From the NCBI GenBank assembly GCA_947085985.1, contig CAMTYL010000003.1, positions 362,108 through 426,107 of the forward strand: a DNA stretch of 64,000 bases, in the 5' to 3' direction. Below the pieces are notes generated by a model. It saw nothing but the letters and a program-made list of their open reading frames with translations. It made no database searches and had not been told where the DNA came from. This DNA is from an uncultured bacterium (lineage in GTDB: Bacteria; Patescibacteriota; Minisyncoccia; Phycocordibacterales; Phycocordibacteraceae). Position numbers and translations under genes: made by a program. Shown here piece after piece: positions 21,735 through 58,003 of the stretch. The stretch's first letter is position 1. Each line of letters opens with the position of its first letter.

Positions 21735-21739
21735 GAGTA

Positions 21740-41887: not shown

Positions 41888-42025
41888 ACGCAGTATCAAG
41901 AGTGCAGCGAGGGAATCAGCCCTACGACCTGCCAGCAACCAGTCGCGCGCGACAACGGTGCTTCTGAACCCGCAAGGGAACGATGCCTTTTACGAACGCA
42001 TCTTCCTGCACGGAAGATGCTTTCG
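41888..42025 (+). promoter_or_regulatory. SAM-I (S-box) riboswitch with expression-platform terminator hairpin, in metK leader
   Basis: uaUCAAGAGugcaGCGAGGGAaucaGCCCuacGAccuGCcaGCAACCagu...GGUGCuucuGAA matches S-box core; hairpin gcatcttcc-tgcac-ggaagatgc + tttcgttt at 41997-42027. Confidence 0.7.
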
Positions 42026-42186
42026 TTTGGTACTCATTTACCATGTGCACCTAACCAAGGGCGTTCAAAAATTTGATAGATGCGCGACGGGCGCGAGGAG
42101 TGATGTGAGCCGTATGAGCTATACGGTGAACGAGCCCCGGAGCGCACAACAAAGCAGCTGCGAATTTTTGGCCGCACTTCTACCCT

Positions 42187-43239: not shown

Positions 43240-43282
43240 CAAGAAACATAATCATAGAAAGAGGCGCCATTGGCGCCTCTTT

Positions 43283-43954: not shown

Positions 43955-44027
43955 AGGTATAGTCTACTCCTATTTGTACAGAAAAGGGCGCCACCTCCCC
44001 ACGGAGGTAGCGCCCTTTTCGCAACCA

Positions 44028-44573
44028 CTACTTCTTGGCAGTCTTCTTCGCTACTACCTTCTTTACTGCAGCCGCCTTCTTTGGCTTTTCTTCTACGGCA
44101 GCAGAGGAAGAAAGAATAGCTGAGTACGCGGTGTTAGAAAGCTGATCCGAGAGCGCTTCAAGCTTCGCGTTCACGCTCTGCAATTCTTTTAGGATTGCAT
44201 CAATCCGGAAGTCGGGCGCAGCTGTGCGAACAGGTGCACGGTCACTTCCGTAGGAAGGTCGGTCGTTACCGAAACTCTTCTTCTGGAACGAGTCGCGCGG
44301 AGCGCCCGCTCCACCTCGAGGCGAGCGCTCGTCGTCACGTACAAAGCAGTCCTTACAGTAGACCGGCTTCATGCCGTTTGGGCGGAATGGTACCTCGCAC
44401 GCGTTCTGACACTTTGCGCAGGAAGTCTTGTAGAGCTCTTTTGGAGCGTCAAATCCGCGACTGTCCTGGCGGCGAGAGCCAGCACGGTCACCAAAGCTCG
44501 GGCGTGAGCCTCCTCCACGAGAAAAACCGCCTGGAGGACCACCTTTTGTAAACTTCTTCTTGAATTCAGACAT
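44028..44573 (-). CDS. Zinc-ribbon (CxxC-x17-CxxC) protein with RGG-rich N-terminus and Lys-rich C-terminus
   Basis: CAKCQNACEVPFRPNGMKPVYCKDC; GG/RG repeats. Confidence 0.5.
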   Translation of the reverse strand: MSEFKKKFTKGGPPGGFSRGGGSRPSFGDRAGSRRQDSRGFDAPKELYKTSCAKCQNACEVPFRPNGMKPVYCKDCFVRDDERSPRGGAGAPRDSFQKKSFGNDRPSYGSDRAPVRTAAPDFRIDAILKELQSVNAKLEALSDQLSNTAYSAILSSSAAVEEKPKKAAAVKKVVAKKTAKK

Positions 44574-44672
44574 AGGTATGTAGTGAGATTTAGTATATTA
44601 ATTATATCATACTGTACTAAAAAAGCAACATCTCGTGAGAGATGTTGCTTTTTGCTCCGCGCGCTTTGGAAA

Positions 44673-45236
44673 CTAGTACTCAACCGTAATCGGGAAGGAC
44701 ACGGACGCATCATGCTCGGGAAGACCTGACGGGTTGTCCTTTCTGAGCACAAGTGTCGCAGGCCCCATATATGTGCTTGGCGCTTTAATCTCTGCTCTAA
44801 ATGGCACAAAGTTTTCTGTCATCCAGTCCCCTTCTGCCTGCGCAATGCCTGTAGCTATCACCTTTCCTGACGGATCAATGAGTACTACCGGGAGCGATGC
44901 CTCAAAGTACCAGGTACCGCGCGCCTTTCCTATTACACTAAACTCCTTGCCGGTGACTGCTCCAGGAAATGGGAAATCCACCACAATGCTGTCTGCAGTT
45001 GCCGCAGTGTAGGTTGGCTCCAGCGCAATCTCTTCTGCGTAGGTGCGACCGTCGTCAGTTCTACACTGTCGCGGATTGCTCTCCATGATTGGATTACCTG
45101 CACTTACGCAGTCTTCAAAGGAGCGGATTTCGCTGTTAATTGAGGTGGGTGCCGGCTGGTCTCGTGTGACGAACCACAATCCAAACCCAACCAGCAAGAG
45201 AACAGCGACGGCGATAAGTATTGTTTTTAAGTCCAT
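44673..45236 (-). CDS. Hypothetical secreted/membrane-anchored protein
   Basis: N-terminal TM/signal anchor; terminator hairpin at 44625-44660. Confidence 0.4.
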   Translation of the reverse strand: MDLKTILIAVAVLLLVGFGLWFVTRDQPAPTSINSEIRSFEDCVSAGNPIMESNPRQCRTDDGRTYAEEIALEPTYTAATADSIVVDFPFPGAVTGKEFSVIGKARGTWYFEASLPVVLIDPSGKVIATGIAQAEGDWMTENFVPFRAEIKAPSTYMGPATLVLRKDNPSGLPEHDASVSFPITVEY

Positions 45237-45255
45237 AGTACTAGTCTAGATAGTC

Positions 45256-45606
45256 TTAATTTCGCAAATCAATGACAGTGGCGGCAGTGTCCGGGCTTGC
45301 CTGCACGCGCTCTGCCTGTCGGTACGATTCTACCTCAGATACCAAATTCTTGTTGTTTTTTTCAAGAATGCGAACTCTAAAATAGCTTGCCATCGCCGAA
45401 GGAATGGACGCAAACACGCTCATAAGTATGCCCACCCCGACCGAAACAAGTACAAGCAATGCGAGCGTGCTTTGAAACTGCCAGCCCATAAATACAAGCG
45501 ACACAACCTCTGTGTTTTGCAGCGCAAAGAGTAATGCAGCGGCTCCGAGAATAAACCCAATGAGTAGTGAAAGTATCATGATTATAAGTATACGCTGTGG
45601 AAACAA
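45256..45606 (-). CDS. LapA-domain (DUF1049) small membrane protein
   Basis: Two TM helices followed by coiled segment. Confidence 0.45.
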   Translation of the reverse strand: MFPQRILIIMILSLLIGFILGAAALLFALQNTEVVSLVFMGWQFQSTLALLVLVSVGVGILMSVFASIPSAMASYFRVRILEKNNKNLVSEVESYRQAERVQASPDTAATVIDLRN

Positions 45607-45703
45607 GCTCTAAGGCTGGTTCACTAGAGTAGCCGTGTAAGGAGTGCGATCCTTACCACCAGTAGTGAGGGGCGGCTGAAACCCTAAGGCTCCAGGGCAA
45701 GTT

Positions 45704-45916
45704 ATGAGTAGTATGCTAGAGAAACTATTTCTGCGCTCCTTTATTGTCTGCTTGATTAGCTGCGCCAGCCTCGTTCTATCCTTTATCTGGGGAGGAGACC
45801 CCGACGACCTGTACGCGCACATTGCGGCCTCACTTTTTATAATTGGCCTTGGATCATTCCTCTTTTGGTTTGTCTCATTCTTCTACAATCTGAAAAAGCA
45901 GCTCTATCCTGTTTAA
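45704..45916 (+). CDS. Hypothetical small membrane protein (70 aa)
   Basis: Two hydrophobic helices. Confidence 0.3.
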   Translation: MSSMLEKLFLRSFIVCLISCASLVLSFIWGGDPDDLYAHIAASLFIIGLGSFLFWFVSFFYNLKKQLYPV

Positions 45917-45977
45917 TAGGAGGCGAATCATTTGTTGCTCTGATATCTGACTACATCGTGGTATACCGTACGTAAGT

Positions 45978-46619
45978 ATGTTCACTGCACTTGAGACTGC
46001 ACTCCTATCATTTGCGCACTCGATGCCGCTTCCCCTTTTTGCATTTGTGGCGTCATTTGTGGAGGAGGTTATTGCACCAATACCGTCAGGTGCGGTACTC
46101 CTACTCATCGGCTCCCTTGCACAGCTTCAATCATATACAGTCCCTGCGCTTATAGTTCTGGCTCTAGTCGCTACATTTGGAAAGCTCTTCGGAGCGCTCC
46201 TCATATATGTAATTGCAGACAAAGCAGAAGATGTGGTTATGGCGCGATTCTCACACTTCCTCAGTATCAAGCATGAGGATTTGGAGAAATTTGGAGAACG
46301 GTTTGGAAATGGGTGGAAGGATTACCTGTTACTTACCCTCCTGCGTGCCCTGCCCATTGTTCCAAGCGCCGTTGTCTCCGCGGGTGCGGGTGTCCTACGT
46401 ATTCCCATGCGGTTGTTCATTTTTGCCACAGTCGTTGGTTCGTTTGTGCGGGACAGTATTTTCATTGGCATTGGATACGGCGGTTTTGTGACCGCAGCAC
46501 TTCTGCTGGACAACCTCTCAGGATACGAGTCGGCACTGCAAATTGGAGTCAGTATTGGTCTCGGCCTTGCCCTAGTCACCTATATATACTTGCGCAAGCG
46601 AAGGACGAAGCGCATCTAG
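45978..46619 (+). CDS. DedA/SNARE-associated (TVP38/TMEM64) family membrane protein
   Basis: DedA signature region ...GSFVRDSIFIGIGY..., multi-TM. Confidence 0.7.
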   Translation: MFTALETALLSFAHSMPLPLFAFVASFVEEVIAPIPSGAVLLLIGSLAQLQSYTVPALIVLALVATFGKLFGALLIYVIADKAEDVVMARFSHFLSIKHEDLEKFGERFGNGWKDYLLLTLLRALPIVPSAVVSAGAGVLRIPMRLFIFATVVGSFVRDSIFIGIGYGGFVTAALLLDNLSGYESALQIGVSIGLGLALVTYIYLRKRRTKRI

Positions 46620-46621
46620 CA

Positions 46622-47326
46622 CTATTGAGCTTGTGCGAGACACTGCTTCAGTTCCGCCGACTCTGTCCAGCCGCAGGCGCCCGTTGACTGGCGCTCACAA
46701 GTCGCCGTTTTATAGCAGCCGTACGCTTCGCGGTATTCACAAGTAGACATTATGTCGGGATTGTCGGTACACAGCTGACTGGAGCAACCACCCACAAAGC
46801 ACTTCCCTTCGGTCTTTGGTGGCACAGCAACGACGGGTTCTTCTTGCGCTGGCAGCATCGTCTCAATCTGAACCTCACCCGCTATGCTGAAGATTCCCGA
46901 GACTTGGTACTTCTGCCAATAATCACTACTAAGCAGCTCAATCGGTGTGATAGTTCCAGAAGCGATGAATCGCTTTCCGTCCTGTACGTTCTGCACACCA
47001 ACAGCAGCCTCCGTATCTAGGGCGTAATACTCACCACTGTCTGTCTTCATACCGATAGCACACTCCAGAGTTTGTGGTCCCGTAGTGTCCTTGTGAGGCA
47101 AGCACACCTTCTCACCTGAAAGCGTGCCGAAGTATGACTCCACCACAGGGCCTTGCTGCTTCTCGTTATAAATGTAGGAATTGAAGGCAAAAAATAAGCC
47201 GGTAAGAATAAGTGCCACACCAGCAACGATTATGAGGGTTCTGTTCATACCTATAAGTGTATCAAATCTGGCCCCCACGCTTAAAACGCCACTGGCATGA
47301 GAGTCACTACTGTCCGTCTTGTTCAA
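46622..47326 (-). CDS. Secreted protein with C-terminal 8-Cys module
   Basis: Signal/TM anchor; CFVGGCSSQLCTDNPDIMSTCEYREAYGCYKTATCERQSTGACGW. Confidence 0.4.
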   Translation of the reverse strand: MNKTDSSDSHASGVLSVGARFDTLIGMNRTLIIVAGVALILTGLFFAFNSYIYNEKQQGPVVESYFGTLSGEKVCLPHKDTTGPQTLECAIGMKTDSGEYYALDTEAAVGVQNVQDGKRFIASGTITPIELLSSDYWQKYQVSGIFSIAGEVQIETMLPAQEEPVVAVPPKTEGKCFVGGCSSQLCTDNPDIMSTCEYREAYGCYKTATCERQSTGACGWTESAELKQCLAQAQ

Positions 47327-48002
47327 GGTGGAATGGCTTGGGAATTTCCTTATCTAAAATCTCGCGCTGCAGGTACTTCGCCTTGGTGCGAATAGTCGCA
47401 CCCTTCTCTGGTGCTCGGTCCTTGGTGGCCTCCATGCGCTTTTGTTCAAGCCAGCTCTCTAGTCGTCGCTTTTCACGCTGCTGTTTTTCATATGCTTCTG
47501 CAATACGTGCTTGTACCTTCTCTCGCTCAACGAGATAGTCCGAGTAGTTTCCTGTGAAGGAACTAATTGATTTAGTTGCAGGGTCTATCTCAAGAATTCG
47601 CGTGACACGTGCCGCATGCATAAGCTCTGCATTCTCAGAAGCGATAAGTACTCCACCTCGGAACTGAGCAACGAAACGCTGCAGCGCCTGCATATCAACT
47701 GCAGGGCTCGCTCCATGCGTATCAATGATAAGAACGGTTGGTCTGGCATGAAGTACGCGCGCAAGTGCGTCAGCGCCCCCTTCAAGAATCTCTGGCGAAA
47801 CGTATCCCACGCGCTCCCCGTCGCACGTAATGCTCCCTTCGTCCATCTCGTCCTCGTCCGCTATAACGCGCAAAAAGGCCGTGACATCGCTTGCCCTGGC
47901 ACCAAGCACGCCCACACGCTCGCCAGTGGCTACGACCACATTAACCTTCTCAAAGAGAGGTTCACCGAGGACGTCTACTCTAAGCTGCTTAATAACTATC
48001 AT
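47307..48002 (-). CDS. ABC-F-like ATPase-domain protein with degenerate Walker A (non-canonical)
   Basis: ABC-domain-like fold, C-terminal NYSDYLVEREK...QQREKRRLESWLEQKR typical of ABC-F linker; no GxxGxGKS. Confidence 0.5.
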   Translation of the reverse strand: MIVIKQLRVDVLGEPLFEKVNVVVATGERVGVLGARASDVTAFLRVIADEDEMDEGSITCDGERVGYVSPEILEGGADALARVLHARPTVLIIDTHGASPAVDMQALQRFVAQFRGGVLIASENAELMHAARVTRILEIDPATKSISSFTGNYSDYLVEREKVQARIAEAYEKQQREKRRLESWLEQKRMEATKDRAPEKGATIRTKAKYLQREILDKEIPKPFHLEQDGQ

Positions 48003-48536
48003 GGTCCTCTATTAGTAGCACACTATACGTATGTTGCTACATAGCACTGCCACTTCGCCAAATTTTTCTTACTCAGTTGCCTTTTCAGTTCGCAGTCGAT
48101 GTGCCTCGTATTCGTATGTTCACTCATACAAGTTGCGGGACTAGGAACGCGATTACGCTTCTCGCCCACGAGTCCTAGTTCGTGTATCTTACCAATCTCT
48201 GCACCACAGGAGTACTTCCAATTTCTAATCGCCTCGCTCAAGAAATCTAGGTCGGGCACCGCCTCCTGGTTTTGCCTGCTGGAAAAAATCCGACGTTCAT
48301 ACCCCGCCGGGCATACTGATGCATAAGTCCTAGACGCGAGTGCCCCGCACTCGCTTCCCGAGCCACGCAAAAACCGCCCCTTAGGGCGGCTTTTTGCTGG
48401 CTGCCAGGTTTGGACGCGTTCAGAACAATTGACTGGAAGGGTCTCGTCCAAGGCCTCGCATTTATGGGCCCTTGTTCCAGTTTTAAAAAGACCCGCCTTT
48501 GAGGGGCGGGTCTTTTAAGAACAGTCGCATCGCGTG

Positions 48537-49091
48537 TTAGTGCCTAGCGACCAGAAGAGCGTTCGTGGCGACGTCGGCCATGGTCTCGTAGAACGGGAAC
48601 GGTTTTCCGTATGCCTCGCTCAACTCGAAAAGAATGACATCGAGACCGTGGAAGCCAGGGTCTCCACCTACCACCATGCGGACATTCATCGTCTCCGCAA
48701 AGGCAGTGAACTTCCCAATTTCACGGCGGGTGTCCATGGCGTATGGCTCAGGTCCCGGATGAGGTTTGGTGATGCTCTCGCGACCCAGCCAGAAGATGAT
48801 GCAACCCGGCACGGCTGGCTCAAGCCCGGCTTGCTTCAGATAGTGGCGTTCCCACACGAGTTGCCGGTTATCCGCTTGCGAGAACGGTTGATGGAAGTGA
48901 CGCGCCAAACGGTGCGCACCATCCCAACGTGACGGACAGGCAATATTCGCCGACGGCTCCTGAGTCAGAATCTGCTCCGCCATTCCTGACTGCCAGTCGC
49001 CACCACCACGAATGGGGCCGGCGAGAAACAGTAGGGGTGAATCAGTCGTTGGCTGAAGCGCTACGATTTGTTTTGGAACATAGATGGGCAT
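48537..49091 (-). CDS. Nucleoside 2-deoxyribosyltransferase-like protein, high-GC, flanked by terminator hairpins
   Basis: LFLAGPIRGGGDWQ motif; hairpins at 48370-48395, 48485-48520, 49112-49140. Confidence 0.45.
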   Translation of the reverse strand: MPIYVPKQIVALQPTTDSPLLFLAGPIRGGGDWQSGMAEQILTQEPSANIACPSRWDGAHRLARHFHQPFSQADNRQLVWERHYLKQAGLEPAVPGCIIFWLGRESITKPHPGPEPYAMDTRREIGKFTAFAETMNVRMVVGGDPGFHGLDVILFELSEAYGKPFPFYETMADVATNALLVARH

Positions 49092-49249
49092 ACGCCCTCC
49101 TTTCTTTTAGGTTAAACAAAACCGCCTTAGGCGGGTCTGTTTAACTTATACCACAAATAAGAATTTGAAGTCCTGGAGAAGAATACTCCAGGTGTTCTGA
49201 CGTCCAATTCCCCTACCTGTAGAACCACATACTTAAGGGGTGAAAAAAT

Positions 49250-49388
49250 GGGCTGGCCATCTCGAGTTCGAACCGTATAGAACCAAGCCCTGCTTAGTCC
49301 GTTTGGTGAGTTTTCAGAAACCAAAACGACGCGTCTCGTGCACCTAGGAAAGTTACAAAAGTGACACAGGAATGAGGTTTTGGTGTCA
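49250..49388 (-). repeat. Copy A of a ~130-nt conserved 3'-UTR element with terminator hairpin (after RT2 stop)
   Basis: ~85% identical to 56290-56420; imperfect hairpin gggctgg...ccaagccc followed by U-run in minus sense. Confidence 0.6.
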
Positions 49389-49389
49389 C

Positions 49390-50385
49390 TTAAATAGTTA
49401 CACTATCCTGTAACGTTTGGACTCTGGTGGCGAGCTTTCTCGTATTTCCATGAGACATTAGGCCGAAATATGAACTCAGTCGTTCCTTGGACGTATTGTT
49501 CCTGAGCTTCGTAAACATCCTCCTTTTACTTACAGTCCTCAATACCCTGTGATCTGAGAAATGCACCCAGCCAAGAAAGTCCACGCCCGACGCAAAGGAC
49601 TTTATATATACCTTGTCCGGGTGCATGGTTAGTCCAAGATTGGTTTCTAGGAATTCATTCAACTGAGGGATGAGTGATTCAAGGTATCCTCGGTCTTCAC
49701 TGAGGAATACGAAATCATCAGCGTAGCGTATGTAGTACTTTGCCCGGAGACGGTGTTTAACGAACTGGTCGAATTCATTCATATACACGTTCGCGAAGAG
49801 TTGTGATGTGAGATTGCCAAGAGGTAGTCCCGTTTTAGGTGTAACCTCGAAGCTGGAGATTATCTCTCGTAAAAGATTCAGAATGTCTGGATCAGGAATA
49901 TGGGATTCAAGAATGGTCATCAGTTTGTTGTGCTTCATGGAGGCAAAGAACTTCCTGATATCGCACTTCAATACCCAGACCGTTCGAGTGTTATTGCGTC
50001 CTACCTTCTGAGAGAAAGCTTTGAATCTATCGAGAGCTTTATGTATGCCCTTTCCGTCACGACAGGAGTACGAGTCATGGATAAAGGTAGTATCAAAGAA
50101 TGGATATAGTTGGCGATATAGAGCGTGGTGCAGGAGCCGATCACGCACATTAGCCTTATGAATAATGCGAGGCTTGGGGTCAGAGATATTGAAACTTATA
50201 TATCCGCCATTGCGATACGACCTATTCTTTAAATCAGCGTGTAGGTCGAGGACGTGTCCCATGAGATTCGTTTCAAACTCCCGCACATCCTTTCGGGCGC
50301 GTTTTCCGTTCAAAAACTCTCGCCATGCGTCGAGTAGATTCTCCGTCGAGATGATATCTTGATATCTATGTCCGTACGCTCTCAT
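49390..50385 (-). CDS. DGR reverse transcriptase, copy 2 (paralog, ~60% aa identity to copy 1)
   Basis: YADD, LPLGNLTSQLFANVYMNEFD motifs. Confidence 0.85.
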   Translation of the reverse strand: MRAYGHRYQDIISTENLLDAWREFLNGKRARKDVREFETNLMGHVLDLHADLKNRSYRNGGYISFNISDPKPRIIHKANVRDRLLHHALYRQLYPFFDTTFIHDSYSCRDGKGIHKALDRFKAFSQKVGRNNTRTVWVLKCDIRKFFASMKHNKLMTILESHIPDPDILNLLREIISSFEVTPKTGLPLGNLTSQLFANVYMNEFDQFVKHRLRAKYYIRYADDFVFLSEDRGYLESLIPQLNEFLETNLGLTMHPDKVYIKSFASGVDFLGWVHFSDHRVLRTVSKRRMFTKLRNNTSKERLSSYFGLMSHGNTRKLATRVQTLQDSVTI

Positions 50386-50427
50386 ACCTCCAAGGCTACC
50401 CCCCCCCCGACACTTCCAGTGCTAGTG

Positions 50428-50760
50428 CAGGTCAAAAGTGTGTATATCCTTTGGAACTCTTACGCCGCAAAAATTCCTAAGACCGCTAAGTACTCTCTTG
50501 GTCTCAAGATAGATAATCTGTTTATAGATACGATTGAAGCAATTTCAATTGCCGCATTCCTACAGCGTGCCGAGAAACTTCCCTATCTCAAGAGAGCAAT
50601 TGCGCGAGTCGATACCCTGAAAGTCTTTCTACAGCTTGTATGGGAAATGAAGCTACTAGATACTAAGCAGTATGCGGAGATTTCAGAGAAGCTCTCGGAA
50701 GTAGGAAAAATGCTTGGAGGCTGGTACGGACAGGTAGTAAAGCAAAACTCCCCTGCATAG
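50428..50760 (+). CDS. avd: Avd-like four-helix-bundle protein, copy 2 (antisense to RT/TR strand); start uncertain
   Basis: ...KYSLGLKIDNLFIDTIEAI...LKVFLQLVWEMKLLDTKQYAEISEKLSEVGKMLGGW. Confidence 0.65.
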   Translation, partial: QVKSVYILWNSYAAKIPKTAKYSLGLKIDNLFIDTIEAISIAAFLQRAEKLPYLKRAIARVDTLKVFLQLVWEMKLLDTKQYAEISEKLSEVGKMLGGWYGQVVKQNSPA

Positions 50761-50781
50761 GCAGGAGAGAAATGAAGTAAG

Positions 50782-50907
50782 TTGCGAAGACGGAACACGA
50801 TGCGATTGTCGAGGTTCCACTGATTGTCGGGATTCGTCCAGTTCGTATTGAGCCACTGCTTGCCGTCCGAGTTCCGCTTGACGTTGAAGACGTTCGGGTT
50901 GCCGTCG
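50782..50907 (-). repeat. DGR template repeat TR2
   Basis: ~126 bp matching 51274-51398; ~24 mismatches, all TR-adenine (T on plus strand). Confidence 0.8.
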
Positions 50908-51257
50908 GAATCGGTTTGAGCGCCACACCATCTGTACCACCACCCCTTGAAAGTTCTTGGGGTTGAATCTTATGTGTGATCGTAATCACCAGTGTGACGC
51001 ACCAAGTATCTTCATTTTTGAAGTTTCTGCATACACCACGCTAGTTCAAATCGTAGTCGGAACTATTCTGGGTTGTATGGATACTGGGTTCGGTAGCAGA
51101 CGAGCCTATGGCTCCCGCGTATTCACCTACTGCCGTTTTTAAATATACCGTATGTAAATGTAGAAAGTCCCCGGGCGCATCACTGCGGCCGGGGACCCTT
51201 GATCGGAAGGACAAAGTATCAGAGGGACAAAGAGCCGAAGCTCTAGTCCCAAGGATC

Positions 51258-51956
51258 TTAGTCCTGAGTGACCTTGCGAAGACGGAACACGATGCGATTG
51301 CCGAGGCTCCACTGATTGCCGGGATGCGTCCAGTCCGCAATGAGCCACCGCTCGCCGCCCGAGCCCCGCCCGACGCGGAAGACGCTCGGGCGGCCGCCGG
51401 AAGCGGTAATCCGTTCCATCGCGATCCAGAGGACTTCGCCGTTGGGCTGATCCTTGTACTGGTCGCGGATGTGCGGACCCGCTTCCGCCGGAAGCAGTTC
51501 GACGACGTGGCCGTCGAGCCGTTCGGCGTTCTGCGCGCTCCACTCGGCAAGCCGGGTGGGATCGAGCAGTTCGGTCGTGGTCGGCATGCGCTCATAGCCG
51601 AAGTCGGCAGGGGTGAGGATGATCGTATCGATTTCCTCCTCCTTGTCGAGCGTCGTGAAGGCGTGGTTGTTGACCAGGCTCTTGGCGTAGTCGCTGACCG
51701 TGAAGCCAGCTTCGACGCGCTTGATGAGCGCCTTCTTGGCGACGCCGCCGATCAGGAACGTCCGCCACTTGGCGAACGCAGGCGTGACCACCAACAGGGG
51801 CGGTTCGGGCGTCTTCCCTTCGATGACGGCCTGGAGGGCCTTCATCACGTCGTCGAAGTTGGCATAGGAGCCGGACTTCACACGCCGGAACAGGTCGTTT
51901 TGGCGGACGGCGAGCTGACCCAGCTGACCGTCGGTGACAAGAGTCTTGGTATTCAT
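51258..51956 (-). CDS. DGR target (variable) protein 2 (233 aa from ATG 51956), paralog of target 1
   Basis: Shared FTVSDYAKSL../ISYLGDNFKGNF.. core and VR-encoded C-terminus ...ERWLIADWTHPGNQWSLGNRIVF. Confidence 0.7.
   Translation of the reverse strand: MNTKTLVTDGQLGQLAVRQNDLFRRVKSGSYANFDDVMKALQAVIEGKTPEPPLLVVTPAFAKWRTFLIGGVAKKALIKRVEAGFTVSDYAKSLVNNHAFTTLDKEEEIDTIILTPADFGYERMPTTTELLDPTRLAEWSAQNAERLDGHVVELLPAEAGPHIRDQYKDQPNGEVLWIAMERITASGGRPSVFRVGRGSGGERWLIADWTHPGNQWSLGNRIVFRLRKVTQD
51274..51398 (-). repeat. DGR variable repeat VR2 at the 3' end of target gene 51258-51956
   Basis: Pairs with TR2; A-specific substitution pattern. Confidence 0.8.
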
Positions 51957-52357
51957 GATATACCTCGTCGTGACAGTACTTTGCCGTTCAAGCTCACCAG
52001 TGTTCGGGTTCGCCACAGCGGAGAATGGCCTAGATAAGCCGCTCTTCGCTGTGGCGAATTCGCAAGGTTTTCAAGGAACAAGTCCGTACCACAGTATCAC
52101 AATATACGGGTAAAGTCAAGTCATTTTGACCGTTCCCGCTCAGAAGAATATCCTTATCAAATATGAGCCAAATAGTTATCGGGGTCGTCATTGCCGTTAT
52201 ATCGGCCATCATCATTTCCCTATTCCGAATTGGTGGAAATCAGAACGTAACGGTACATCACGTACAAAGCACTCATCGTGCTGGGACTCTTTGGAAACTA
52301 ATGATTGTTCTAGGCTGGGGCAGTGAAGTTCCCTCGCGAAGGAGCGGAGCAGCTTAT

Positions 52358-52645
52358 TCAGCAGATCGTACACTTTGGTGTCGAGAAGCATGACGACCTT
52401 GCAGACGCGTTCTCTGCTCTCGTCTTGGACGCGATTGCCGATCCTCCAAGAACCTTCAGGAGGAACTCTGTAAAAGCAGGATCGTCTTTTGAAACCTCTA
52501 TATCAATATCTATATCAGTAAGGTTCCGGGGTACTCCGTATGCATAACAAGCGAAGCCACCTGTTATACACCAACGCAGATTCAGTTTATCCAGAATTGG
52601 GATAATGAATGAGAGCGCTTCGTGTGCTTTTTGTTGTTCAGGAGT
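52358..52645 (-). CDS. Nucleotidyltransferase-domain protein (minimal NTase/ANT-like); C-terminal tail atypical, possibly truncated at ~52440
   Basis: LRWCITGGFACYAYGVPRNLTDIDIDIE (GG...DID motif). Confidence 0.45.
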   Translation of the reverse strand, partial: TPEQQKAHEALSFIIPILDKLNLRWCITGGFACYAYGVPRNLTDIDIDIEVSKDDPAFTEFLLKVLGGSAIASKTRAENASARSSCFSTPKCTIC

Positions 52646-52652
52646 CATAAGG

Positions 52653-53150
52653 TTAGTTGTTTTGAGCTTCCTCAAAGAAGAGAATTTCTCGTGGAAGAAT
52701 ATACTCTCCCTCCCATTGTGTCGGGGTGCTTTCACTCAATAACCGCATTACTTCTTCAATCGGGAGCCATAGAGTCTGAAAACCTCTTTCTTTTTCACTC
52801 TCAGTTAGTTGAGGTTCACCCTTATCCCCTACTAACTTTGCAAGATAGCAATATGAAATCTGCTTTTCATTATCTTCCTTCCAATATTCAGTCGTAAAGC
52901 CAAGTTCCCGTATCACCTCAATTTCGCATCCTATCTCTTCCTGACATTCTCGGTTAAGGGCAATAATCTTATCTTCATCGCCTTCTAGTCCACCACCAGG
53001 AAGCTTGTAGTAGTTATCTCTACTTACATTTAGTAAGGCGATTAATCCTTGGTCATCGGATACGATTGCTCGCGCTGCTTCTCGTATTTTGTATCCCGAA
53101 GCTTCTTCGTGAGAGACATTTCTAGGATTAATTAGGCCAAGATCTTTCAT
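52653..53150 (-). CDS. NUDIX hydrolase
   Basis: Nudix box GGGLEGDEDKIIALNRECQEEIGCEI. Confidence 0.7.
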   Translation of the reverse strand: MKDLGLINPRNVSHEEASGYKIREAARAIVSDDQGLIALLNVSRDNYYKLPGGGLEGDEDKIIALNRECQEEIGCEIEVIRELGFTTEYWKEDNEKQISYCYLAKLVGDKGEPQLTESEKERGFQTLWLPIEEVMRLLSESTPTQWEGEYILPREILFFEEAQNN

Positions 53151-53153
53151 AAC

Positions 53154-53876
53154 TTAAAACTTTTTAAACCATTTGACCGTCGCCTTATATAAAGCTTCTT
53201 GCTTCCCGTCTTCTGAGAAATTATGATGAGCGCCCTTTATTACTACAAGTTCTTTCTTCTGGGTAGTTCCCTTGAACATCTTCTGTGCGCCATCTAGGTT
53301 TCCATCTATATTGTCGTCTACAGTGATGTAAGAAATTGGTTGCTCGAATGTCTTGAGTAGATCAACAGATTTGATTGTGTGGGAATCCTTGGCCATCTGC
53401 TCACCGACGACAATGTAGTACCCGAAATCAACGAGGCGACCTTTTGGCTTCTCAATACGTTCAGGCATATCAACATGGTTCGTGGGAAGTATAGAGCCGT
53501 CCCAAGCGGCAACTGCCGTAAAGCTTCGGTCTTTGGTATGAAGAATTGATGGGAATCCGTAGCTGTGTCCTGTGATGAAGATCTTCTTCGCACCCTTAGA
53601 TTTCAAGTACTTTAGAACAGAATCAATATCCTCTCCGTGCGTCGAGAAAGTGGTCTCATCCAGTCTCCTTGAGCCCTTTTCCCAAGCATATAGATTGAAT
53701 CGTAAAGATGAGAATCCCTGCTTTTCAAAGTATCGAGCTGCGTTATATTGCAACGCTGTATTCATATCTCCTGCCAGGCCATGTACTTGCACGATGACAG
53801 GTTTACGCAAAGAACCGCGAAGAATGGCCTGAATGGTCTTCCCTCCAGTGGTCTTTATTTTGAGTACCTTTTCCAT
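53154..53876 (-). CDS. Alpha/beta-hydrolase (dienelactone-hydrolase-like)
   Basis: ITGHSYG nucleophile elbow. Confidence 0.65.
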   Translation of the reverse strand: MEKVLKIKTTGGKTIQAILRGSLRKPVIVQVHGLAGDMNTALQYNAARYFEKQGFSSLRFNLYAWEKGSRRLDETTFSTHGEDIDSVLKYLKSKGAKKIFITGHSYGFPSILHTKDRSFTAVAAWDGSILPTNHVDMPERIEKPKGRLVDFGYYIVVGEQMAKDSHTIKSVDLLKTFEQPISYITVDDNIDGNLDGAQKMFKGTTQKKELVVIKGAHHNFSEDGKQEALYKATVKWFKKF

Positions 53877-53923
53877 ATCTTAATTGTATCGCAGGCACCC
53901 GAAAAGGAAACGACGTGTTCTAA

Positions 53924-54364
53924 TCACTGAATATCCTGTTTGGGAGCATTGGGGAAATTGACCTCATCCCAGAGCGAAACGATCTGTGGCTTCAGCATCC
54001 AGTACGCCCTTCCTTCTGGAGTATTCGCAAGCACTTCTTGTAAACGCTCTGGTTTATCTCCAAACTTATTTCCGTATAGCTGATTAACCCTCTCAACATC
54101 ATCAAGAGCAACTTCAAATGCCTCTCCCACTATTTGCACTGCTTGTTTATGTTCTGAATCATGCACTACAGTGGCGGCTGCTTTTGGATTGTTTAGTATC
54201 TCCTTAGAGTGCTGTCGGGAACGTGCCGAAGTCCAATAGAGATTACCCTCCTCATCAGCGACAAAGTATACGTTACAGATCCACGGACCATTCTCGCCCA
54301 CAGTCGCCAACTGCATAAGCTTGTTAGCACTTAAAAATTCTTTGAGGATATCCTTCGGGTTCAT
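53924..54364 (-). CDS. Pyridoxamine 5'-phosphate oxidase-like FMN-binding protein (general stress protein 26 family)
   Basis: 146 aa, PNPOx-like split-barrel pattern. Confidence 0.6.
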   Translation of the reverse strand: MNPKDILKEFLSANKLMQLATVGENGPWICNVYFVADEEGNLYWTSARSRQHSKEILNNPKAAATVVHDSEHKQAVQIVGEAFEVALDDVERVNQLYGNKFGDKPERLQEVLANTPEGRAYWMLKPQIVSLWDEVNFPNAPKQDIQ

Positions 54365-54711
54365 AAGGCAACTATATCTGCAACGATCTCAGGAAAAGTT
54401 GCATCGTTAAAATGCTTTCTGTCTTCAAAGATTCGAGTCTGCGCCGAAGGTAGTTCCTTGTGGTATCGCTCAAAGTTACTGAACGGAACACTCTCATCGT
54501 CTTTGCTATGGTAGAGAATTATTTCGCCTCCTTGTCTTTCCAGATCAGAAAGATCGGTCAGGATATTGAAGTCTACATACGGATGGTCGTCCAGAGCGTT
54601 GTATGGAGCTGCCACTAAAAGCGTGGCTTTTATCTTCATTGGGTACTTCTCCTCGGAGAGATACTTTGCGAGGAATATTCCACCGTATGCCGGAAAACAC
54701 GAACCGATCAT
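54361..54711 (-). pseudogene. C-terminal fragment of a YdeN/RBBP9-type alpha/beta hydrolase (N-terminal nucleophile half missing)
   Basis: Retains ...LVAAPYN...ILYHSKDDESVPF... C-terminal half only; abuts recombinase fragment. Confidence 0.45.
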
Positions 54712-55222
54712 AAGCCAGGAGCTTTTTAGAAAGGTTCAGGAAAAACTAGACACCAACACACATGAGAGCAAGGGCGATAAAGAATTCGCTTTCACCAAGC
54801 TCATGAAGTGTGGCATGTGTAAATCAGGCGTAACGGCTGAAGAGAAATACAAAAATCTTGCTGATGGATCAATCAGAAAGTACATCTACTACGGGTGCAC
54901 CAAATTTCATGACAAGAACTGCAAAAACACTTACTTACCTGAAACTGATCTAATCTATCAGCTTACTGAAATTATTGATCGCATAGACATCAATCAGGTC
55001 GGTGTTAAGGATAAGCTTGAAAAAGAGATCGAACGCTATGTAGATTTCAGAAGTAAGGTTTTAGGAATGACCGAGGATGACAAGATACGCCAGAATCGTC
55101 TAGATATTCGAGGCTACATGAAATACATTCTTGAGAAAGGTGCGATTCAGGAAAAACGAGAATTAATGCAATCGTTTACGAGCCGACTAATACTCATTAA
55201 TAAAAGAGTTGTACTGGAGTAA
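54690..55222 (+). pseudogene. C-terminal fragment (zinc-ribbon + coiled-coil) of a large serine recombinase; catalytic resolvase domain absent
   Basis: HEPIISQELFRKVQEKL followed by CGMCKSG...YYGCTKFHDKNC zinc ribbon; no upstream resolvase domain. Confidence 0.6.
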
Positions 55223-55231
55223 GTGTGAAAT

Positions 55232-56215
55232 TTATTTAGTAAGCACCTCTACCAATGAGTCTAAATTCTCAGAAAGATATTTGATTCTCTTGTGATCGTC
55301 AAAGAGGAAATGGTCTACACGAGTATTTCCTTTCAGGTAATGCTCACTCTCTACCCAGAAACCGTGAATGGTTTTAACGAAGTAAAGCTGCAAACCTCTT
55401 TTAATCTCATCTTTCGATATCGGGTAAACGCTTGAGTACGCATCTATATATTTTCTCGCATTCTCCAAATCAGCTTTTGTAACGTCTGCGGAGAGAAGTC
55501 CGTATATCATCGACCTGAAGATTTCATATGTTCTAGGAGAATAGTTTGTCTTCTCAAGATCAAACACCCACTTCACCTTGTCCTCCTCATCAAAGAAGAC
55601 ATTATGATCAAGATAGTCACCATGTATCAAATGGTCGCAGTTTAAGCCCAAACTCTCAAAAGTCATTGTGTTTTTTAAAAGAAGCCCCTTTTTCATCTGC
55701 ACATTTTCAAGCGCAACTTTATCAAAATCACTCAGAAGGCTGACCTCTGATATTTTAACTAAGATATCTTCGATCTTCTTAAATGTCTTTTCTTCATTCT
55801 CAATCTTAAACTGATCGTCTATAGCCAGTTTTGATTCTTTGCCGAGGAGATGAATCTTTCCCAACATTTGACCAAGAGAAATAATGGACGCTTCAGTCAG
55901 ATTACCCCTTTCAAGATGCTTGCCTTCGACAAAAGGAAATAGTGCGTAATAAGCACCATCATGTTCAAAAAATGTATTTCCATCTAAAAGTGATATAGGA
56001 AGAATCACTGGAATACCACCGTCAGCAAAATACTTTTTGGAAGCATGGACTTCGGCAATTCGATTAGAGTTATCAAACCTGTACTTCTTTAAAAAGAACC
56101 TGGTCGTTCCGTCTGAAAGAAAATAATTATCGCTTAAAAAGCCTCTTGTTACCTTTTCAGAAGAGGAGACGTTGGTTCCATACAAATGATTTATTTTTAC
56201 TAAAATCTCTTCCAT
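55232..56215 (-). CDS. Phosphotransferase-family kinase (APH/choline-kinase-like)
   Basis: LIHGDYLDHNVFFDEE...WVFDLE (HGD catalytic loop, D...DLE). Confidence 0.7.
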   Translation of the reverse strand: MEEILVKINHLYGTNVSSSEKVTRGFLSDNYFLSDGTTRFFLKKYRFDNSNRIAEVHASKKYFADGGIPVILPISLLDGNTFFEHDGAYYALFPFVEGKHLERGNLTEASIISLGQMLGKIHLLGKESKLAIDDQFKIENEEKTFKKIEDILVKISEVSLLSDFDKVALENVQMKKGLLLKNTMTFESLGLNCDHLIHGDYLDHNVFFDEEDKVKWVFDLEKTNYSPRTYEIFRSMIYGLLSADVTKADLENARKYIDAYSSVYPISKDEIKRGLQLYFVKTIHGFWVESEHYLKGNTRVDHFLFDDHKRIKYLSENLDSLVEVLTK

Positions 56216-56289
56216 AAATGCAATTATAACCTTTCTGTACCTTAAGCTGTACTTACAGCAATTCGACCCGTCTAGGTCGCCGGGTACCA

Positions 56290-56420
56290 AAAACTAAGCT
56301 GCTGGCCGTCTCGAGTTAGAACCGTGGCCGGTCAAGCCCTGCTTGGTCCGTTTGATGAGTTTTCAAAATCCAAAACGACCCGTCTCGAGCGCTTTCAAAG
56401 TGACAAAAGTGACACTCCCC
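56290..56420 (-). repeat. Copy B of the ~130-nt conserved 3'-UTR element (after stop of 56420-56923 gene)
   Basis: ~85% identical to 49250-49388. Confidence 0.6.
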
Positions 56421-56923
56421 TAGGATGTTGGCCAGAGCTTCTTTTTGAAGTAAAAGTAAAGTGTAAAAAGGATTACCGAAACTCCTACTGGTGGAAACGC
56501 ATAGAGAGTAAGGGCAAATAAGTTATATCCAATCGAGAGAATTCCATTGAGGATATCTACAACCAAGGGAACGATTACAAAGAACATCGCACCCATGAGG
56601 AGTACCCAGATGATTGCCTTTGCCTCCTTGAACGATTGCCAATCCCCAAGTATCCGATACAACCCTTTGTAAAACTTAATCTTATATAGAAAGGCACCGA
56701 GGGTAACGAACGTAAGTGCGCTGTAGAAGATACGCACGAATATAGACGGTGGGTCTATCGGACTGATATCTGTCCACGTGAAGGACTTCCCCATTCCATA
56801 AACCCACAGCAAAAATGCGAGAGTACAGATAACGGAGAAGGCCGCCCCTGATAGAATCTCTTTTCTATATTTTCTCAGTATCCTTCCGTACCAGCTCATT
56901 TTAGTTTCTTCGGTAAAGCCCAA
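56420..56923 (-). CDS. Hypothetical 4-TM membrane protein
   Basis: 167 aa, four hydrophobic helices; overlaps upstream HNH gene by 23 nt (operon). Confidence 0.5.
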   Translation of the reverse strand: MGFTEETKMSWYGRILRKYRKEILSGAAFSVICTLAFLLWVYGMGKSFTWTDISPIDPPSIFVRIFYSALTFVTLGAFLYKIKFYKGLYRILGDWQSFKEAKAIIWVLLMGAMFFVIVPLVVDILNGILSIGYNLFALTLYAFPPVGVSVILFTLYFYFKKKLWPTS

Positions 56924-57998
56924 ACTTAAGTATCTTTTGAGCTGGTGTTAAAAGATGTTCTGGCGTTTGGGACAAATTAGTGATTATGCGTTCAAAAGGA
57001 TTGAACGCGTGGCCTCCACCAAAGTTAGGAAGATTCAACTCTTCCGGCATCGCACCAAGAACTATCTTATATATAGCTTGCCCACCAAAGAAGGTCATGG
57101 TCGCAACAATCTGACCATCTTCAAGTACAAAGTTTATAAAATGCATTATTACTCTCCGACCTTCATCTCGCTCTAATTTTAGAACCGGGTCTTGAGTAAT
57201 CGAGACGATTATCTCTTTCATTACACCCTCGCCAGAATGTATGAAGTTTCGAATTTTATCGAAATGCTGGCTGAATAGGATATCCCTTTTACCATCCTGG
57301 ATAGCGCAGTATGCGAAATAATTAAAAGCTATTTTTGCAAAGACACGTGCCAAATCTCTATCGACTGAACAGGAATACTCCTCCTCAATAGTAATTTTGT
57401 CGCCAGGTTCAAACTGATGACCTTTAGATGCTTTTTCTTTGTAGTTAACTCCATACTCATGTAGCAAACTAATCATACTTTTTACTTCCTCTTGAGTCTC
57501 TCCGAAGATAGCAATGTCTTTCTGATCTAGTTTCTGCATGTCTGCAGAAAGCTTTTTAAACTCGCGTCCTCCTTTAGGGACTGAGCGCAGAGCTTCAGGT
57601 CTGAAAACCCGGAAACCACCCTTGAGTCTTCGAAGCTTTATCTGATTTTTTAAGGCAGGAACTATCCTGTTCTCTTTAGGTTCAAGAAACAGGAACATCT
57701 CATTGAAAAATTCATCCCCAAATCCATTCAATCGAGTGATTTTGAACTGATTATTTCTAATAGTGACACTTCCTCTACCATCCAGGTTAAGACGCTGCCC
57801 AAAAACACCCTCGCAAGTATCCTCTGTAAAGATAGTTTCGAGTCGGGTAAAGACCTCAGAATTGCATATGTCACACACGACATCTCCTTTGATTGTCGCG
57901 TTCGAATCGAAGGTTCCAAGACAGCGCGGCATTACATGTTCACGCGAATTGAAAGTCGTCTCTGGCTCACCCTTCAAGCAATATACGCATTGGGACAT
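56901..57998 (-). CDS. HNH-endonuclease-domain protein with uncharacterised C-terminal domain
   Basis: N-terminal CVYC...REHVMPRCLG...CDICN HNH/zinc-finger pattern. Confidence 0.6.
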   Translation of the reverse strand: MSQCVYCLKGEPETTFNSREHVMPRCLGTFDSNATIKGDVVCDICNSEVFTRLETIFTEDTCEGVFGQRLNLDGRGSVTIRNNQFKITRLNGFGDEFFNEMFLFLEPKENRIVPALKNQIKLRRLKGGFRVFRPEALRSVPKGGREFKKLSADMQKLDQKDIAIFGETQEEVKSMISLLHEYGVNYKEKASKGHQFEPGDKITIEEEYSCSVDRDLARVFAKIAFNYFAYCAIQDGKRDILFSQHFDKIRNFIHSGEGVMKEIIVSITQDPVLKLERDEGRRVIMHFINFVLEDGQIVATMTFFGGQAIYKIVLGAMPEELNLPNFGGGHAFNPFERIITNLSQTPEHLLTPAQKILKFGLYRRN

Positions 57999-58003
57999 AC
58001 GGC

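Follow-up and report, generated by a model that had tools for sequence, protein, structure and literature searches.

The window, the whole 64-kb stretch of DNA that was analysed, very probably contains a complete, functioning diversity-generating retroelement (DGR) of a Patescibacteria-specific lineage, a reading to which we give a probability of about 90%. This element, DGR2, is arranged in the order target/VR - TR - (avd, opposite strand) - RT (Table 1). By coordinates and strands, its order of TR, avd on the reverse strand and RT, with the target upstream, matches the definition of architecture B3, 'TR-(avd)-RT', which covers ~90% of CPR DGRs (Wu et al. 2018, NAR 46:11, PMC5758913). The same order and orientation are repeated in about 30 related genome loci. 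As originally predicted, DGR2 forms a second DGR that is self-contained and does not depend on DGR1, having an RT, Avd, TR, VR and target to itself: TR1 matches VR1 alone and TR2 matches VR2 alone, and no further TR1-like or TR2-like copy or extra VR of either was found in the 64 kb. While two DGRs are indeed present in this stretch, calling this notable was an overstatement, as ~10% of the complete genomes that carry any DGR have several, with an enrichment in CPR (Wu et al. 2018, PMC5758913; Roux et al. 2021, PMC8144416).

Table 1. Features of DGR2, with positions in the window.
Feature	Position	Strand	Description and basis
DGR reverse transcriptase RT2	49390..50385	-	331 aa, RVT_1, LGNLTSQ and YADD motifs
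avd-RT divergent intergenic region	50386..50418	.	33 bp, C10 tract at 50399-50408, from sequence
avd (accessory variability determinant)	50419..50760	+	113 aa, GTG start at 50419, Pfam bAvd
Stem-loop 3' of TR2	50739..50769	-	9-bp stem and tetraloop, terminator-like site
TR2 invariant template repeat	50782..50915	-	134 nt, 37 adenines
Structured 5' leader of TR RNA	50916..51136	-	RNAalifold, covariation, covariance model
Putative promoter -10-like hexamer TATATT of TR ncRNA	51142..51147	-	Inferred, 26-locus alignment
GC-rich hairpin, likely target-gene terminator	51167..51196	-	Inferred from sequence and relatives
Degenerate CTTnG motifs	51212..51253	-	Motif positions, counts vs shuffles
Target (variable protein) gene	51258..51956	-	232 aa ORF
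VR2 variable repeat	51274..51407	-	Direct repeat of TR2, three alleles
Leader hairpin of target gene	52009..52058	-	50-nt inverted repeat

TR2 and VR2 form a direct repeat with a spacing of 492 nt, and the two copies are 84% identical over 134 nt each. Read on the minus strand, 21 of the 21 mismatches are at TR adenines; TR2 has 37 adenines in its 134 positions, and VR2 carries another base at 21 of them (16 A>G, 4 A>C and 1 A>T; hypergeometric P ~7e-15). The original prediction of a distinct repeat pair with mismatches at adenines only is therefore upheld, with a length of 134 nt instead of ~126 bp and 21 mismatches instead of ~24. VR2 lies in frame at the 3' end of the target ORF, where it encodes the last ~45 residues, and the TR2 adenines occupy positions 1-2 of AAC, AAT, GAC and AAG codons. 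The final 27 nt of VR2 are identical to TR2 (an IMH-like region), after which the homology stops abruptly; in many relatives the 3' end is marked by a fixed synonymous CGA(TR)/CGC(VR) difference. Most of the ~30 related loci likewise have TR/VR pairs of ~134 nt in which TR adenines account for every mismatch or almost every one.

Two independent assemblies of the same strain, of 18,873 bp (ERR4904395) and 8,771 bp (ERR3478701), differ from the window by 7 and 18 substitutions, respectively, and are otherwise identical to it. All 25 differing sites lie within VR2 at TR-adenine positions, resulting in three VR2 alleles. The remaining 8.6-18.7 kb outside VR2 contain no substitutions, with TR, RT, avd and flanks identical, and TR2 is the same in all independent assemblies that cover it. 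Across the three alleles, 31 of the 37 TR adenines are substituted at least once, as opposed to none of the non-adenine positions. Because the substitutions in otherwise identical DNA all sit at TR-adenine positions of VR2, we conclude that DGR2 is currently active and that adenine-directed diversification of VR2 is ongoing. The alleles are consensus assemblies that could be mosaics of a mixed population, which would still require diversity at adenine sites. Between the window and ERR4904395 the differences are confined to the 3' third of the repeat (positions 82-115), and the 5' 22 nt of VR2 are common to all three alleles, a pattern that suggests 3'-anchored partial conversion. Among the observed substitutions 76% are A>G, an excess that may reflect selection or a biased enzyme.

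We weighed two other explanations for these alleles. In the first, DGR2 is a fossil: TR and VR came to differ through activity in the past, and the alleles reflect normal divergence of strains or inter-strain recombination. There are only three alleles, and that of the window is common to three samples, as a fossil would allow. Ordinary divergence, however, would not be confined to 25 substitutions in a 134-nt VR, all at TR adenines, with none in the other 8.6-18.7 kb. The ORFs of DGR2 are all intact as well, and TR, RNA structure and stem-loop are conserved, so we consider a fossil highly improbable. In the second, the contigs differ in VR because of assembly errors, either wrong joins of TR-derived and VR-derived reads or collapse of the repeat. 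The similarity of TR and VR makes the repeat a frequent break site for assemblers, and three other assemblies end inside VR2 or within ~15 nt of it. Yet mixing of TR and VR would give N>A changes, whereas many of the differences are new non-A bases where the window VR keeps A, or replace C, G or T by another of these three, and those contigs have an unaltered TR copy. An artefact thus has a negligible chance of accounting for the alleles. Active diversification leaves DGR2 as a clean natural case of ongoing mutagenic retrohoming, with three VR alleles on an invariant background of up to 18.9 kb.

The protein-coding genes agree with this assignment. RT2 carries the DGR-clade RT signature ([I/L]GxxxSQ, YxDD) as LGNLTSQLFANVY and YADD. 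Among solved structures its best match is the RT of the Bordetella phage DGR (8ub7, E-value of 1.7e-43), and the next chains, a retron-type RT (5hhl) and then a group II intron RT, follow at 3e-21; against the NCBIfam group II intron family it scores 142 bits, below the cut-off of 300. More than 8000 relatives of RT2 were found, and the named ones are from Patescibacteria. Avd2 matches Pfam bAvd with 47.2 bits, over the cut-off of 40, and NCBIfam DivGenRetAVD with an E-value of 4e-19 and 68.8 bits, under the cut-off of 80. Between the two genes, the region with the C10 tract has a constant length among the assemblies that cover it. We rejected a sequence change such as C-tract slippage as the cause of differing RT and avd gene-call lengths in other assemblies, as the DNA is identical.

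The target 2 gene has a GAGG 7 nt ahead of its ATG at 51956 and encodes a protein with a helical N-terminal part and a C-terminal domain with a weak resemblance to the C-type-lectin fold. The protein had no family match in Pfam or NCBIfam, no Foldseek hit in the PDB below an E-value of 0.6, and no signal peptide or membrane segment. Downstream of the gene, the GC-rich hairpin (GTCCCCGG...CCGGGGAC, then TTTCT) has a matching hairpin and T-run at the same place in relatives, and is likely the target gene terminator. Both target genes in the window have an extreme GC3 of ~0.84. Adenine erosion was rejected as the cause of the GC-rich target, since sense-strand A is not depleted relative to T, and high target GC3 was rejected as a family-wide trait (paired test, n = 31, p = 0.54).

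How diversification proceeds can be proposed from the layout of the cassette. A ncRNA of ~390 nt would be transcribed from the minus strand, from a promoter near 51142-51147, and would consist of a ~220-nt leader, the 134-nt TR and the 9-bp stem-loop with its U-run. The limits of the transcript, its promoter and the priming site are putative, and the structure of the ncRNA is backed by covariation. By homology with the Bordetella phage system, RT and Avd would bind this ncRNA and copy TR to cDNA, misincorporating opposite adenines. The cDNA would replace VR from its 3' end inwards and recode up to ~31 codon positions in the last ~45 target residues, an outcome shown by the three VR alleles found in nature, whose differences are restricted to TR-adenine sites.

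The putative promoter of the TR ncRNA, the -10-like TATATT, aligns with a conserved extended -10 of relatives, TTTTTG(G/A)TATA(A/C)T (26 loci). A generic sigma-70 scan gave nothing useful near TR and did not list this hexamer. From a 5' hairpin (~51092-51134) the leader continues into a long stem domain (51030-51079) and then, stopping 2 nt short of TR, a domain of three helices (50918-51003). Of the 40 pairs that RNAalifold assigned to the leader, 32 have compensatory changes. In the 3' domain 94.5% of cells are paired, compared to 32-51% when slid, and its covariation score is 0.594 against at most 0.16 in the slid controls. A covariance model of the leader (R1) matches only two places in the window, the TR2 leader and the region ahead of TR1, and 33 of 80 related loci, 10 of them outside the seed. 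A scan of 49000-52600 with Rfam 15 (E <= 1) returned no family, only chance miRNA-like matches at a palindrome near 49106-49150.

On the other side of TR2, a stem-loop (50769-50748; CTCTCCTGC-CTAT-GCAGGGGAG, nine pairs and a 4-nt loop, then TTTTGCTTT) begins 12 nt past the repeat and overlaps the stop codon of avd, which is encoded on the opposite strand. TR1 is followed by an equivalent of different sequence, and a per-sequence hairpin search found a stem-loop past TR in 27 of 28 related loci, again with differing stem sequences. MAFFT/RNAalifold yielded only 3 pairs in the region 3' of TR because loop lengths vary. The stem-loop of DGR2 looks like an intrinsic terminator, and the U-run past it suggests transcription termination. 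In the Bordetella phage the functional spacer reaches ~140 nt past TR, and so the CPR RNA would either be shorter or be read through, antisense to avd. By its 9-bp stem, tetraloop and position, the stem-loop also matches the 'Avd-binding stem-loop' of Handa et al. (bioRxiv 10.1101/2023.10.23.563531), who report stem-loops of this kind downstream of TR for 207 of 278 DGRs.

Two further conserved elements are associated with the target gene. The first is the near-perfect leader hairpin of 50 nt (arms TTCGCCACAGC / GCTGTGGCGAA), located ~50 nt upstream of the target start codon. It occurs at only two sites in the window, before target 2 and before target 1, where none are expected by chance. Metagenome stretches that carry it number at least 120. 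Where an RT is present, the hairpin is 1.50-1.79 kb upstream of its start in 26 of 30 loci, and avd/RT are present in 10 of 12 hairpin loci with enough flank. Its arms show compensatory changes in two loci (L020 and L023). Judged by this distribution, the hairpin is a conserved leader element of target genes in this CPR DGR family. The second element is found directly downstream of VR2 and the target stop codon, where a CTTGG at 51249-51253 precedes CTTCG, CTTTG, CTCTG and CTTTG, which run from 51240 to 51212 at an exact 8-nt period. Over 26 loci we counted 91 CTTnG motifs compared to 19 +/- 3.9 in shuffles, with spacings of 8 nt (25 times) and 16 nt (11 times). An array also follows VR1. TRF reported no array past the VR of DGR2 and only a 2-copy octamer in DGR1. 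No cruciform was found directly after VR2, the CTTnG repeats being in its place, and we consider these motifs a candidate target-site or 3'-UTR recognition array.

The presence of two similar cassettes raised the question of how they are related. RT2 was predicted to be ~60% identical to RT1 and the value is 61% over 322 aa; at the DNA level the RT genes are ~65% identical. The Avd proteins share 33% identity, a 76-nt leader block is 78% identical, and there are two short common spacer blocks. It had been proposed that such whole-cassette homology reflects duplication followed by divergence. Shared blocks do exist, but because they are conserved throughout the CPR DGR family they say nothing on local duplication. 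In alignments with database relatives of both, RT1 ranked only 175th of 219 as a neighbour of RT2, and RT2 199th of 219 as a neighbour of RT1. A neighbour-joining tree placed RT1 and RT2 as sisters in 0 of 200 bootstraps, an outcome that the original prediction had itself taken to speak against duplication. In all 200, RT2 grouped with P0002-P0005 (79-81% identity) and RT1 with P0227 (88% identity). Other contigs supply over 100 closer relatives for either RT, with identities of up to 91% for RT2 in a partial match (80% at full length) and up to 87% for RT1. The predicted paralogy of the two targets, with a shared core, was not borne out either: the best BLASTP E-value is 0.84, hhalign gives a probability of 11% over the last 60 residues only, and the two proteins resemble the C-type-lectin fold only weakly.

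An origin of one DGR from the other by duplication within this genome, with both copies including their targets diverging afterwards, would explain the like gene order and orientation, the identity of the RT and Avd proteins, the leader hairpin and spacer blocks common to both, and the extreme GC3 of both targets. Considering the many closer relatives of each RT, the ranks and bootstraps, the targets unrelated in sequence and the family-wide nature of the common non-coding blocks, we regard it as very unlikely. RT2-clade RTs and target-2-type genes moreover occur on the same contigs, so this clade travels with its target type. What the trees refute is a recent RT1/RT2 duplication, as distinct from a very old event at the root of the family, and the two cassettes should no longer be regarded as a freshly duplicated pair. 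Together, these comparisons argue for two separate CPR DGR lineages that were separately inherited or acquired. Two lineages of one DGR family, each with its own target type in one genome, provide a natural test of cross-talk or insulation among RT, Avd and RNA.

When both cassettes were compared with ~100 related loci, conserved elements of RNA and DNA emerged around TR and VR. None of them has an Rfam match, and they could account for the way in which CPR DGRs initiate, end and direct the synthesis of cDNA. We tentatively suggest, with somewhat less than even confidence, that these non-coding parts jointly constitute a CPR-specific, undescribed version of the DGR machine. This version would consist of a TR RNA gene that stands alone and has an extended -10 promoter to itself; a ~220-nt multi-helix leader immediately 5' of TR, where the Bordetella phage has avd coding sequence; an Avd-type stem-loop doubling as intrinsic terminator; an 8-nt-phased CTTnG array after VR, which could be a target-site signal replacing the IMH-proximal cruciform; and a sequence-conserved 50-nt hairpin heading the target mRNA. 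If functional, the conserved parts are testable handles on the bounds of cDNA synthesis and on target recognition in the most DGR-rich bacterial branch.

Among known systems, the DGR of Bordetella phage BPP-1 (mtd-avd-TR-brt) supplies the closest solved homologue of RT2, with the GxxxSQLFANVY motif in common. Both systems also have an Avd and a stem-loop just past TR, and in both the TR is ~134 nt long, substitutions fall on adenines only and VR sits at the target C-terminus. In contrast to BPP-1, where the region 5' of TR is the 3' end of avd, DGR2 has a large conserved RNA structure there. Its stem-loop is trailed by a U-run, CTTnG repeats take the place of the GC-rich cruciform directly after VR, and the element is chromosomal and cellular, outside any phage tail-fibre system. 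Also among the closest known systems are the variable proteins of DGRs that have a C-type-lectin fold (Treponema TvpA, 2y3c; Mtd, 1yu0), together with FGE-like proteins. A conserved structured RNA beside the DGR template has been described before in the RT-associated RNA motifs RT-1 to RT-19, of which RT-10 lies between TR and brt of BPP-1 (Weinberg et al. 2017); unlike these motifs, 49000-52600 is without an Rfam 15 match at E <= 1. The CPR DGRs themselves (B3, Wu et al. 2018, PMC5758913; DGR clade 2, Roux et al. 2021, PMC8144416) have TR, avd and RT in the same order and on the same strands as DGR2. The two surveys make no mention of a structured TR leader, 8-nt-phased repeats or a target leader hairpin. 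The nearest named RT2 relatives are from Patescibacteria, and the targets reported for DGR clade 2 resemble target 2 in having neither a membrane segment nor a domain that can be recognised (Roux et al. 2021, PMC8144416). DGR2 is thus an ordinary CPR DGR, a fresh member of an already known type with no essential difference from the others.

DGR2, the second diversity-generating retroelement in the window, has all the protein and repeat components of such a system. Its RT2 and target 2 genes lie exactly where the original prediction had placed them. The features of DGR2 and their DGR1 counterparts are collected in the table.

Features of DGR2, with counterparts from DGR1, by position in the window
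Feature	Position	Strand	Remarks
RT2 ORF, 331 aa	49390-50385	minus	Pfam RVT_1
avd2 ORF, 113 aa	50419-50760	plus	between RT2 and target 2; Pfam bAvd
Stem-loop: 9-bp stem, tetraloop, U-run	50769-50739	minus	starts 12 nt past TR2
TR2 (template repeat)	50782-50915	minus	direct repeat, 134 nt
Structured RNA, immediately 5' of TR2	50916-51136	minus	covariation
Three-helix domain adjoining TR2	50918-51003	minus	covariation
-10-like hexamer TATATT	51142-51147	minus	counterpart of relatives' box
CTTnG motifs, strict 8-nt phase	51212-51253	minus	directly after target 2 stop codon and VR2
Target 2 ORF, 232 aa	51258-51956	minus	ATG preceded by GAGG at 7 nt
VR2 (variable repeat)	51274-51407	minus	direct repeat, 134 nt
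Leader hairpin, 50 nt	52009-52058		~50 nt upstream of target 2 start codon
RT1 ORF	20336-21337		
Structured RNA, immediately 5' of TR1	21840-22066	minus	covariation
CTTnG motifs, DGR1	about 22100-22150	minus	just after VR1 and stop codon
Leader hairpin, 50 nt, DGR1 target	22847-22896		

The repeat finder returned one long direct repeat, the TR2/VR2 pair, with 84% identity over 134 nt. The predicted pair is thus real, although its ~126 bp stopped 8 nt short at the 5' end. Its mismatches do all fall at TR adenines, but number 21 rather than the slightly high ~24. Read on the minus strand, 21 of 21 are A in the 50782-50915 copy (chance probability 7e-15). From TR2 to VR2 they comprise 16 A>G, 4 A>C and 1 A>T; of the 134 TR2 positions, 37 are adenines, and 21 of these are changed. 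TR2 adenines fall at the first and second positions of AAC, AAT, GAC and AAG codons. VR2 lies in frame at the 3' end of the target 2 ORF; the 3'-most 27 nt are identical in both repeats, and homology breaks off sharply five codons upstream of the stop. No further VR-like copies of TR2 or TR1 were found in the 64-kb window. The 33-bp divergent avd-RT intergenic region holds a C10 homopolymer (50399-50408), equal in length in all six covering assemblies. The DGR1 repeat pair covers 22164-22271 and 21739-21846 (108 nt). TR adenines account for 20 of its 21 mismatches; the exception, a G>C at repeat position 3, probably lies outside the true TR.

We compared independent assemblies of this organism, drawn from ten sequencing runs and retrieved by exact-protein look-up. 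Contig L001 (ERR4904395) aligned without gaps to window positions 41513-60385 with 7 differences, and L004 (ERR3478701) differed at 18 positions across 47535-56305. All 25 differences fall within VR2, between 51293 and 51385, and all 25 are at TR-adenine positions, while TR2, avd, RT2, the target body and the flanks are unchanged in both contigs. The window allele recurs in contigs from ERR3478704 and ERR3478705 and in a short ERR3478703 contig (L214), whose encoded target protein is exactly that of the window. Three more contigs end inside VR2 or within ~15 nt of it (L011 from ERR3478706, L012 and L007 from ERR3478709). Across the three alleles, 31 of 37 TR adenines were substituted at least once, and no substitution occurred at a non-adenine TR position. 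Mixing of TR and VR reads during assembly cannot explain these alleles, because many differences are new non-A bases at sites where the window VR still has A. The allele differences are direct evidence of DGR2 activity, and VR turnover in nature is adenine-restricted. The window and ERR4904395 alleles are the same at VR positions 1-81 and differ only within 82-115, and the first 22 nt of VR2, including four substitutions, are common to all three alleles. Partial, 3'-anchored replacement of VR by cDNA would leave such a remnant; in the Bordetella phage DGR, the polarity of marker transfer is established. At DGR1, contig L002 (ERR3478701) matched the window over 11 kb including VR1, apart from one single-base indel. 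Many of loci L041-L086 carry a fixed synonymous difference at the extreme 3' end of the repeat (TR CGA AAG vs VR CGC AAG), which looks like an IMH*/IMH distinction marking the 3' limit of conversion; it is absent from DGR2's own clade, where both copies read CGCAA.

RT2 and RT1 are 61% identical across 322 residues, in agreement with the ~60% first estimated, and Avd2 and Avd1 are 33% identical. The original prediction explained this likeness by duplication of a whole cassette followed by divergence. Comparing the DNA of both cassettes, we did find RT and three short non-coding blocks shared, but each block is part of a family-wide element. RT1 was absent from the best 120 of more than 8000 RT2 database matches, as was RT2 from the best 120 of RT1. 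When 220 sequences were aligned jointly, RT1 ranked 175th of 219 in closeness to RT2, and RT2 199th of 219 to RT1. Neighbour-joining trees (86 sequences, 200 bootstraps) grouped RT2 with database relatives P0002-P0005 and RT1 with P0227 in 200/200 bootstraps each, and paired RT1 and RT2 as sisters in 0/200. A recent duplication of DGR1 is therefore not supported as the origin of DGR2. The data fit two distinct DGR lineages, separately acquired or retained. Close relatives of RT2 and of target 2 share contigs; RT and target type are therefore co-inherited.

The RT and avd genes of both cassettes have a GC content of 44-51%, against about 52-54% in the chromosome beside them (1-48 kb), and DGR2 lies next to 12 kb of low-GC DNA that carries recombinase-like and HNH-like genes. 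This composition is compatible with horizontal acquisition. From DGR2 on (~49100-61500), GC is 37-47% vs about 52-54% across most of the left side. Genes there include weak recombinase zinc-ribbon and HNH matches, an APH-type kinase, a NUDIX hydrolase and a 1126-aa protein without a Pfam match; the region, DGR2 included, may be a genomic island.

Target 2 has no Pfam match, and none of its 105 homologues (E <= 1e-3) has a Pfam domain or informative name. When these are aligned, the body is conserved, the hypervariable columns coincide exactly with the TR-adenine codons, and a conserved (I/V)VFRLRK strand closes the alignment. We found no hydrophobic segment in target 2, which would allow a cytoplasmic location, as the literature notes for targets of Patescibacteria (CPR) DGRs (Roux et al. 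2021, PMC8144416). Both target genes (51258-51956 and 22162-22779) are extreme codon-composition outliers, with a GC3 of 0.84 (C3 ~0.50, A3 ~0.06). Against this stand a median of 0.53 (sd 0.08) for the window, 0.68 for the next-highest ORF and about 0.46-0.51 for the RT and avd genes of both cassettes. In other genomes the close target-2 clade keeps a GC3 of ~0.8 beside RTs of 0.41-0.51; high GC3 was not seen in distant target-2 relatives. Antisense to the GC-rich target 2 runs a 309-aa ORF (51108-52037, plus strand), which the gene callers of Logan assemblies annotated instead of the real target; the family is therefore partly missing from database protein sets. Four close target 2 homologues (L016, L017, L018 and L019; 57-79% identity) have neither RT nor avd within 6 kb and may be remote targets or non-diversified copies.

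Both sides of TR2 carry conserved RNA structure. The structured RNA on its 5' side, also found 5' of the TRs of related CPR DGRs, has 40 predicted pairs, 32 with compensatory changes (RNAalifold, 25 sequences). In its three-helix domain, 94.5% of cells are paired vs 32-51% with the partner slid, and the covariation score is 0.594 vs <=0.16; none of 500 shuffles reached the observed values. A covariance model of this domain matched only 50908-51027 and 21840-21963 in the window, and 33 of 80 genome loci, including ten that had not contributed to the seed. Matches in genome loci are always beside the TR and on its strand, even in cassettes inverted relative to the target. The leader RNA has no match in Rfam 15. 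Upstream of it, relatives have in common an extended -10-like box, TTTTTG(G/A)TATA(A/C)T. The stem-loop on the other side of TR2 overlaps the avd stop codon on the opposite strand. DGR1 has an equivalent of other sequence after TR1; among 28 related loci such a stem-loop was present in 27, its stem taking many different sequences.

Two further elements surround the targets. Across 26 loci, CTTnG motifs are conserved in position and number 91, compared with 19 +/- 3.9 in shuffles; 25 of the spacings are exactly 8 nt and 11 are exactly 16 nt. The leader hairpin has invariant 11-nt arms (TTCGCCACAGC / GCTGTGGCGAA), occurs in the window only upstream of the two DGR targets and was found in at least 120 metagenome stretches, preceding targets of several families. 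Of 30 loci with an RT, 26 have the hairpin 1.50-1.79 kb upstream of the RT start; of 12 loci whose flanks reach 2.6 kb or more on each side, 10 have avd or RT nearby. A U-G pair in its inner stem would be a C-A mismatch on the opposite strand, which suggests an RNA role for the hairpin, on the sense strand of the target.

If DGR2 works like its homologue in the Bordetella phage (Handa et al. 2018 and 2024 preprint), RT2 and Avd2 would bind the TR RNA through its flanking structures, prime in cis near the TR 3' end and copy TR, misincorporating bases opposite adenines. Synthesis would be halted by the structure at the 5' end of TR, and the cDNA would replace VR from the conserved 3' segment inwards. 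The TR RNA is predicted to be its own transcription unit, convergent with avd, from a promoter near 51145 to the terminator-like stem-loop near 50740. Alternatively to termination at the U-run, the functional RNA may read on antisense to avd. From the 33-bp gap with the C10 tract, avd and RT2 would be divergently expressed. What is left of most interest in DGR2 is its conserved non-coding elements and the GC3 of 0.84 in both target genes.

Among solved structures, RT2 is closest to the Bordetella phage DGR reverse transcriptase (8ub7, E 1.7e-43), whose GIPIGSLTSQLFANVY aligns to the RT2 hallmark segment GLPLGNLTSQLFANVY; retron-type and group II intron RTs come next (E 3e-21). The stem-loop after TR2 matches, in stem size, tetraloop and place, the 'Avd-binding stem-loop', typically 9 bp with a tetraloop just downstream of TR, inferred in 207 of 278 DGRs, CPR included (Handa et al. 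preprint, bioRxiv 10.1101/2023.10.23.563531); upstream of TRs, that study covered 40 nt only. Two DGRs in 64 kb had been called notable, but several DGRs in one genome are not rare, occurring in about 10% of DGR-bearing complete genomes (Wu et al. 2018, PMC5758913). At E <= 1e-30 the search found more than 8000 RT2 relatives; those with names belong to Paceibacterota, Sungiibacteriota, Nomurabacteria and other Patescibacteria. Judged from such named relatives, the source genome is probably a Paceibacteria/Parcubacteria-like member of Patescibacteria. Scanning species-representative genomes for the target-2 family gave 80 loci, nearly all labelled as Patescibacteria lineages, with a few MAGs labelled otherwise. 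About 30 share the DGR2 order target(+)-TR-avd(-)-RT(+), most with ~134-nt TR/VR pairs in which TR adenines account for all or nearly all mismatches. DGR2 matches the TR-(avd)-RT architecture termed 'B3' by Wu et al. (2018), and by the sequence features of its RT, Avd, TR/VR pair and gene order it is a DGR of the CPR B3 type. It likewise resembles the cell-encoded, Patescibacteria-restricted DGR clade of Roux et al. (2021), whose targets are without recognisable domains.
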